The notes below the pieces were generated by a model, which ran no database searches, was not told the origin of the DNA, and saw only the letters and a program-made list of their open reading frames with translations. The position numbers and the translations under genes are program-made. From the NCBI RefSeq assembly GCF_016026235.1, contig NZ_CP065613.1: DNA of 64,000 nt, one strand, 5' to 3'. How positions within the stretch are numbered: the stretch's first letter is position 1; the number at the start of each line of letters is the position of its first letter. Source of the stretch: Escherichia coli (GTDB lineage Bacteria; Pseudomonadota; Gammaproteobacteria; Enterobacterales; Enterobacteriaceae). Positions 2,801 to 3,469 of the stretch are shown here, piece after piece.

Positions 2801-2835
2801 AAAAGCGGCCATTTTGTGGCCGCCTGCGGTTGATT

Positions 2836-2870
2836 GCCGGATGCGGCGTAAACGCCTTATCCGGCCTACA
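2836..2870. repeat. REP (repetitive extragenic palindrome) element
   Basis: GCCGGATGCGGCGTAAACGCCTTATCCGGCCTACA; the same motif family recurs in several intergenic regions of the window. Confidence 0.75.
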
Positions 2871-2883
2871 TGATCGTGCAAAT

Positions 2884-3045
2884 TCAATAAATTGCAGCGT
2901 TCTGTGGATACTGGTTTGGGTGATCGTATCCGGCAAAGCCTTTGCGTGCGGTGGCAGTTGACGGGGTATCTGCTGCGCTGGCCATGAGAGGAAGAGCGGC
3001 GGCGACAGCAACAACAAGAAGTTTGGGTGAAAACGAAAATTCCAT
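2884..3045 (-). pseudogene. aslA: 5' stub of a periplasmic protein gene, probably arylsulfatase aslA; rest of gene absent
   Basis: Minus-strand ATG at 3045 encodes [28 protein letters not shown]..., a classic Sec signal peptide with AXA site, then stops after 53 codons; this is where aslA is expected (convergent with aslB, before glmZ/hemY) but only ~160 bp remain. Confidence 0.45.
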
Positions 3046-3469
3046 GCAAAATGCTCCGGTTTCATGTCATCAAAATGATGACGTAATTAAGCATTGATAA
3101 TTGAGATCCCTCTCCCTGACAGGATGATTACATAAATAATAGTGACAAAAATAAATTATTTATTTATCCAGAAAATGAATTGGAAAATCAGGAGAGCGTT
3201 TTCAATCCTACCTCTGGCGCAGTTGATATGTAAGGCAGGTTTATTATATCGCGTTGATTATTGATGCTTTTTTTAGTTTTAACGGCAATTAATATATGTG
3301 TTATTAATTGAATGAATTTTATCATTCATAATAAGTATGTGTAGGATCAAGCTCAGGTTAAATATTCACTCAGGAAGTTATTACTCAGGAAGCAAAGAGG
3401 ATTACAGAATTATCTCATAACAAGTGTTAAGGGATGTTATTTCCCGATTCTCTGTGGCATAATAAACGG

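Follow-up and report, generated by a model that had tools for sequence, protein, structure and literature searches.

How did a stretch of Escherichia coli chromosome come to hold the gene of a sulfatase-maturating enzyme with almost nothing of the sulfatase beside it, and is the remainder anything more than debris? The locus lies near the start of the window, by which we mean the whole stretch of 64,000 nucleotides that was analysed. Many complete E. coli chromosomes match its DNA at 99-100% identity, and its gene order is the Escherichia coli arrangement; the first 5 kb run through the 3' end of thrP (yifK), tRNA genes for Arg, His, Leu and Pro, aslB, a short gap, glmZ, hemY and hemX. An initial annotation made from the letters alone had placed the end of an intact aslB at 2800 and the end of hemY at 3724, leaving about 920 bp where an aslA gene of about 1.65 kb is expected. 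These coordinates are all correct: the gap between aslB and hemY measures 923 bp, and full-length loci carry an aslA gene of 1,656 bp there.

The locus and what is left of aslA

The genes and signals that frame the gap are the following.

1565..2800, plus strand: aslB, encoding an intact radical SAM/SPASM protein of 411 aa from its ATG (open reading frame; Pfam Radical_SAM and SPASM)
2803..2825, minus strand: GC-rich hairpin followed by a T-run, terminator-like (consensus scan: 9-bp stem with 6 GC pairs, TTTTACTTAT tail)
Within 2907..3045, minus strand: part of aslA that appears to encode a Sec-type signal peptide and the first mature residues (sequence read by eye)
3046..3469, no strand assigned: divergent aslA-glmZ intergenic region, AT-rich and retained (about 99% continuity with full-length loci)
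3470-3676, plus strand: glmZ small RNA with its terminator (Rfam RF00083, model positions 1-214 of 214)
3724-4920, minus strand: hemY (open reading frame with HemY_N domain)

The gene on the left of the gap is in good order. AslB scores 519.7 bits against the TIGR03942 'anaerobic sulfatase maturase' equivalog, above its cutoff of 349.45, and carries near its N-terminus the radical SAM motif CNLNCDYC, of the form CxxxCxxC. By family, AslB is predicted to be an anaerobic sulfatase-maturating enzyme (anSME) that would convert Ser or Cys to formylglycine, and RefSeq records annotate its gene at coordinates equal to the open reading frame in the window. We take the aslB-aslA locus to be comparable to Klebsiella atsBA, a Ser-type sulfatase paired with a radical SAM maturase. 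On the other side of the gap, glmZ had been described as untouched, and it is: the match to RF00083 is full-length at 218.4 bits (gathering score 60), the terminator lies at 3642-3671, and zero differences were seen in any compared genome.

Some observations on the surroundings deserve mention in their own right. As predicted from its sequence, the hairpin at 2803..2825 would stop transcription that arrives from the direction of aslA. K-12-type genomes, which differ at 2800 and 2804 too, are without 9 bases at window 2805-2817; part of the hairpin, present in the window, O157 and others, is thus missing from them, and the terminator-like structure between aslB and aslA varies among lineages. 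Upstream of aslB, O157:H7 strain 8368 (657-1319 of its locus, L004) has an extra tRNA-Leu, which gives five tRNAs against four in the window. A tandem direct repeat of TATTCACTCAGGAAGT (1.9 copies, 3363-3392) lies about 80-105 bp upstream of glmZ and may be regulatory. In five listed genomes with below 80% coverage (H35-H39), homology to the window stops at about 3679, just past the glmZ terminator, where the annotation lists a 'hypothetical protein'; strains of this type appear to hold different or extra DNA between glmZ and hemY (window about 3677-3723). About 700 genomes were without 80% coverage in one place in the window search. Farther on, hemX (4923-6176, minus strand) contains a perfect hexanucleotide array, GGTGCA x 14.5 at 4963-5049, translated as a run of (Pro-Ala)n close to the C-terminus of HemX. 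The protein has 417 aa here against the 393-411 aa implied by annotated gene lengths in other strains, a spread that marks the hemX repeat as length-variable.

What stands in the gap itself is the beginning of aslA. From 2907 onward full-length loci can be followed without a break at 98.7-99% identity, and by position and identity the short reading frame found there is a remnant of that gene. The remnant covers 2907..3045 on the minus strand, 139 nt, which is codons 1-46 and one base. The reading frame that it opens had been noticed as a stub of 53 codons starting at 3045 and ending just short of a REP element, and this description is accurate: it spans 2884-3045 (minus strand), ends 14 nt from the retained REP (REP1), and consists of 46 native codons followed by 7 new ones (PQNAAIY) and a TGA, all of which come from the linker of a REP pair (BIME), formerly spacer DNA. 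That the stub should align to the 5' end of aslA was borne out, with 46/46 residues identical between stub positions 1-46 and O157:H7 AslA (tblastn E=2e-16); against K-12 AslA, residue 9 is the sole difference.

The initial reading of a lost catalytic body and a kept 5' end is likewise sound. Codons 47-551 are missing, and in full-length AslA the Sulfatase domain occupies residues 86-418 and the Ser-type SSPTR motif lies at 136; both lie in the missing part, so the stub is without anything catalytic. Its protein has zero Pfam or NCBIfam matches and does not belong to Sulfatase (PF00884). The deletion thus took away the SSPTR site, the predicted target of formylglycine formation by the maturase. 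Kept by the deletion are the aslA upstream region (424 bp, with the start codon and ribosome-binding site at about 99% identity to K-12), the GGAG ribosome-binding site at 3054-3057 on the minus strand, the start codon and the part coding for the signal peptide. Read by eye, the N-terminus, which runs MEFSFSPK, a 13-residue stretch and ASA|AD, resembles a Sec signal peptide with n-, h- and c-regions and an AXA site, cleavage being expected after residue 24. Retention of the upstream DNA suggests that the aslA promoter, whose position is putative, was kept as well, and 3046..3469 would hold whatever putative promoters serve aslA and glmZ; a promoter consensus scan of 2700-3750 returned 4 weak hits against 2.1 expected. 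What remains of aslA is a dead gene fragment, and AslA cannot be made by carriers of this allele.

This agrees with existing annotation. In every carrier fetched, RefSeq/PGAP labels window 2908-3045 a pseudogene, 'incomplete; missing C-terminus', under the name arylsulfatase, or hypothetical protein in ATCC 8739 and fS25a. The partial arylsulfatase pseudogene ECO26_RS34915 of O26:H11 strain 11368 has the same position, 138-nt extent and junction as the window and is 99-100% identical to it; there is no difference of substance between the two, and the window holds another copy of the same allele.

Extent of the deletion and the REP at its junction

Comparison with four full-length loci, K-12-type (L002), O157:H7 (L004), CUWW06 (L005) and strain 746 (L006), fixes the limits of the missing DNA. 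For the K-12-type, O157:H7 and CUWW06 loci, the aslB side pairs with window 1400-2905 and the aslA-5'/glmZ/hemY side with 2907-3800; strain 746 is homologous on the left only as far as window 2865. The flanks are 96-99% identical to the full-length loci, and 1,579 bp are absent between them (L004 2807-4385), the left homology ending at window 2905, which is L004 2806. Flanks that align in this way on both sides of a 1,579-bp gap are not a chance pattern. The window shares with the K-12 and O157:H7 loci the flanks, aslB, the aslA 5' end with its upstream region, and glmZ, and it differs from them in what the deletion took away: codons 47-551 and the stop codon of aslA, together with 62 bp of the spacer between aslB and aslA and the second REP (REP2). 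Only the maturase half of the pair is left. The event had been called an internal deletion; a deletion it is, but not an internal one, because it runs out of the aslA 3' end into the spacer and is thus a 3'-terminal truncation. Very probably what is seen here is the trace of a single old deletion, about 1.58 kb long, that has spread by descent and recombination and for which REP misalignment is the likely cause.

The elements at the junction are the following.

2836..2869, no strand assigned: REP1, the retained REP of a former REP-linker-REP (BIME); inverted repeat with 14-nt arms, 86% complementary
2870..2905, no strand assigned: the 34-bp BIME linker (2870-2903) and GT (2904-2905), the first two bases of the REP2 GTAG head; last left-flank homology
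2906, no strand assigned: junction base G (three-way comparison; in a simple join both parents have A)
2907..2938, no strand assigned: GATA-N12-ATCGTATCCGGCAAAG in the aslA remnant, probable misalignment site, in register with GATA-N12-ATCGCATCCGGCAAAG of the deleted REP2

REP sequences are found where chromosomal duplications and deletions join, and gyrase binds BIMEs. The element at this junction has the hallmarks of the class: an imperfect palindrome of about 35 nt, a GTAG/CTAC head, many copies, and an inverted pair in the parent. Queries containing REP1 hit a median of 27-28 places per genome, REP1 being the multi-copy part of the query; hits H40 and H100, for instance, cover query positions 135-170 only, which is the REP piece. 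The parental spacer is a BIME made of REP1, a 34-bp linker and an inverted REP2, of which the window keeps only REP1, the linker and two REP2 head bases.

Whether REP elements sit at the junction had been proposed as a check on a REP-mediated deletion, and the answer is divided. The left break falls within a REP, in the GTAG head of REP2, but the right break, in aslA, has next to it only a 16-nt look-alike of a REP arm. REP2 and this 16-mer match at 15 of 16 positions. When 60-nt windows were paired at random, 4 of 20,000 pairs gave a match as good, a rarity that supports misalignment between REP2 and its look-alike as the origin of the deletion. Such a misalignment would most likely account for the event: both sites read GATA-N12-ATCG[C/T]ATCCGGCAAAG, and the join would have formed at or next to GATA. 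The arrangement is like known REP/BIME rearrangements in that one end lies in the head of a BIME REP and the other beside an in-register, 16-nt REP-arm look-alike; it is unlike a plain crossover between two REPs in that the partner is a chance look-alike in coding sequence and an extra small change is needed.

That extra change arises because a one-step junction fails. Neither a clean parental join nor a crossover at GATA alone gives the observed TTCTGT-G-GATA, so the REP-misalignment mechanism is inferred rather than proven. The second step may have been the loss of AGGCT accompanying a GATA crossover, or an A-to-G change accompanying a plain 1,579-bp deletion. When a closer parental allele was sought, the best full-length left flanks were only 98.1% identical (O157-type), with a REP2 the same as that of K-12; since no full-length genome in the collection has a closer left flank, the two routes look alike.

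Spread of one deletion allele through the species

How widespread the deletion is had been raised as a question for survey. We searched 5,426 complete E. coli genomes with a 401-bp junction query that only the deletion form can cover in one piece, and found the junction in 1,729 of them (~32%). The deleted segment, the aslA body, is present in 3,698 of the same 5,426 genomes (68%), almost always once. Because the two counts add up to 5,427, carriers are without the aslA body, and the event is loss, not relocation. The initial annotation had itself favoured loss over rearrangement, and rightly: the aslA body is found nowhere else in the window or in carrier genomes. A second sulfatase was also looked for in the window and none was found, other tblastn hits having E>1.

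From the literature and from what is known of the named strains, deletion carriers belong mainly to phylogroups B1 and C, with some in A. A 2022 survey reported aslA as present in A, B2, D, E, F and G and as missing from ST155, ST58 and ST156 (B1), ST410 (C) and ST101 (PMC8844930); strain HS is also without aslA (PMC5180367). An independent route to loss of the aslA/aslB system is seen in strain CUWW06, whose locus is full-length and in which both genes are dead, aslB (1466-2701) by an internal stop and aslA (2869-4523) by a frameshift. Of 27 public loci fetched, 2 have an IS1 inserted upstream of glmZ, in the AT-rich DNA between aslA and glmZ: those of strains PM4-5 (L012, 2445-3142) and EP91B (L024, 3422-4119); one of the two is a deletion carrier, and the other a full-length strain with an internal stop in aslA.

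A junction so common could have formed once or many times. We inspected 16 of the 1,729 carrier genomes base by base, which together with the window makes 17 carriers. The aslB genes of these carriers fall into two haplotypes about 0.11 apart in pS, and such divergence beside one junction is what recurrent, independent deletions at a REP-driven hot spot might leave behind; the REP-like direct repeat, whose match is significant, could also predispose the site to deletion. The junction itself speaks differently. A 45-nt junction string is identical in 17/17 carriers, including the odd G that neither parent templates in a simple join, and 7/7 mapped carriers show zero differences from the window in 2801-2905. 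In a site-by-site map the divergence between the aslB haplotypes is limited to the 5' and middle part of the gene (1724-2311), far from the junction and with clear mosaic boundaries. Strain 126096 equals the window from 2794 to 3969 and is K-12-like in aslB 1796-2275, and in ATCC 8739 and fS25a the DNA around the junction is of window type for about 480 bp at most (between 2541 and 3020), while to either side of it both strains match the full-length T28R haplotype. Mosaic flanks around one junction string point to a single deletion allele moved between backgrounds, and the same break arising anew each time is very unlikely. In the carriers sampled, this single allele was inherited vertically and was also carried into other backgrounds by homologous recombination. 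As an observation apart, aslB 1724-2311 is unusually polymorphic and mosaic in E. coli, with up to 20 differences per 200 bp and sharp boundaries that suggest frequent recombination.

The same comparisons bear on two other ways of reading the short form. It might be ancestral, with the sulfatase body inserted later to yield full-length aslA, and for this we found no support. The stub is the exact N-terminus of a complete sulfatase that then runs into a REP linker, and full-length aslA occurs in all divergent haplotypes sampled, including the most distant (strain 746, 93-96% identity), besides 68% of genomes. An ancestral short form has next to no chance of being correct and is effectively refuted by the exact AslA N-terminus in the stub and the wide distribution of the full-length gene. 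Alternatively, the stub might now be a functional small gene, whose 53-aa pre-peptide would be exported and cleaved to about 29 aa. The ribosome-binding site, ATG, signal peptide and AXA site are all kept, a terminator-like hairpin lies downstream, and the reading frame is open in 17/17 carriers, although carrier divergence is too low for an open frame of 53 codons to be meaningful. Against such a role, the four variants among the 17 carriers (F3I, L9R, L10F and A33V) are all non-synonymous with 0 synonymous, as expected of a dead remnant; the new C-terminus is an accidental read-through of the REP linker; the protein is without a Pfam or NCBIfam match; and PGAP calls a pseudogene. We consider a working small gene highly improbable, and the stub is best regarded as what one old deletion left of aslA.

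aslB without aslA, and what the locus means

With aslA gone, AslB had been described as orphaned. This is right as a statement on the gene neighbourhood, but loss of function is not implied, for aslB is intact in 16 of the 17 carriers, TUM9757 being the one with a nonsense change (Q224*). Within the main carrier haplotype, the segregating sites of aslB are 5 synonymous, 7 non-synonymous and 1 nonsense, and include C297Y in the SPASM region; the window and O157 alleles differ from each other at 24 synonymous and 8 non-synonymous sites (Fisher p=0.037 against the carrier polymorphism). This excess of amino-acid changes in carriers is a weak hint at most, as it is also usual for low-frequency polymorphism; in the control, nine full-length loci of phylogroup-A type, aslB diversity is zero in both control haplotypes. 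In most carriers aslB may be maintained by selection or may simply be undecayed so far.

Literature on the gene offers only hints of a role independent of AslA. A modest effect of aslB on acid resistance, under RcsB/GadE control, has been described (PMC2984483), and sulfatase maturation in E. coli is incompletely understood (PMC8379841). It is conceivable, though doubtful, that carriers benefit from losing aslA, or at any rate tolerate it, that aslB is actively kept, and that AslB has a substrate other than AslA. The suggestion draws on the entry of the deletion into a phylogroup-A-type background on a tract of about 0.5 kb, together with the 16 intact aslB genes.

Our findings fit into what is already known of this locus as a common, annotated, lineage-specific gene loss. 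In the literature we found presence/absence surveys and general remarks on aslB, and neither the break points of the aslA deletion nor an association with REP; the association of the junction with a REP and the survival of an intact aslB after the loss of aslA go slightly beyond existing annotation. The finding matters little beyond the correct annotation of the aslA remnant. It may nevertheless help in reading surveys, because many genome surveys score the presence or absence of aslA, which is listed as an 'invasion/virulence' gene, and its absence in about one third of E. coli is due to one fixed 1.58-kb deletion with a defined junction; such absence mostly marks lineage and not a trait independent of lineage. 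The deletion junction can also serve as a simple lineage marker. If AslB does act on something other than AslA, its other substrate would be another sulfatase or a peptide, and strains of phylogroups B1 and C would be natural aslA knock-outs in which a second role of AslB may be found.
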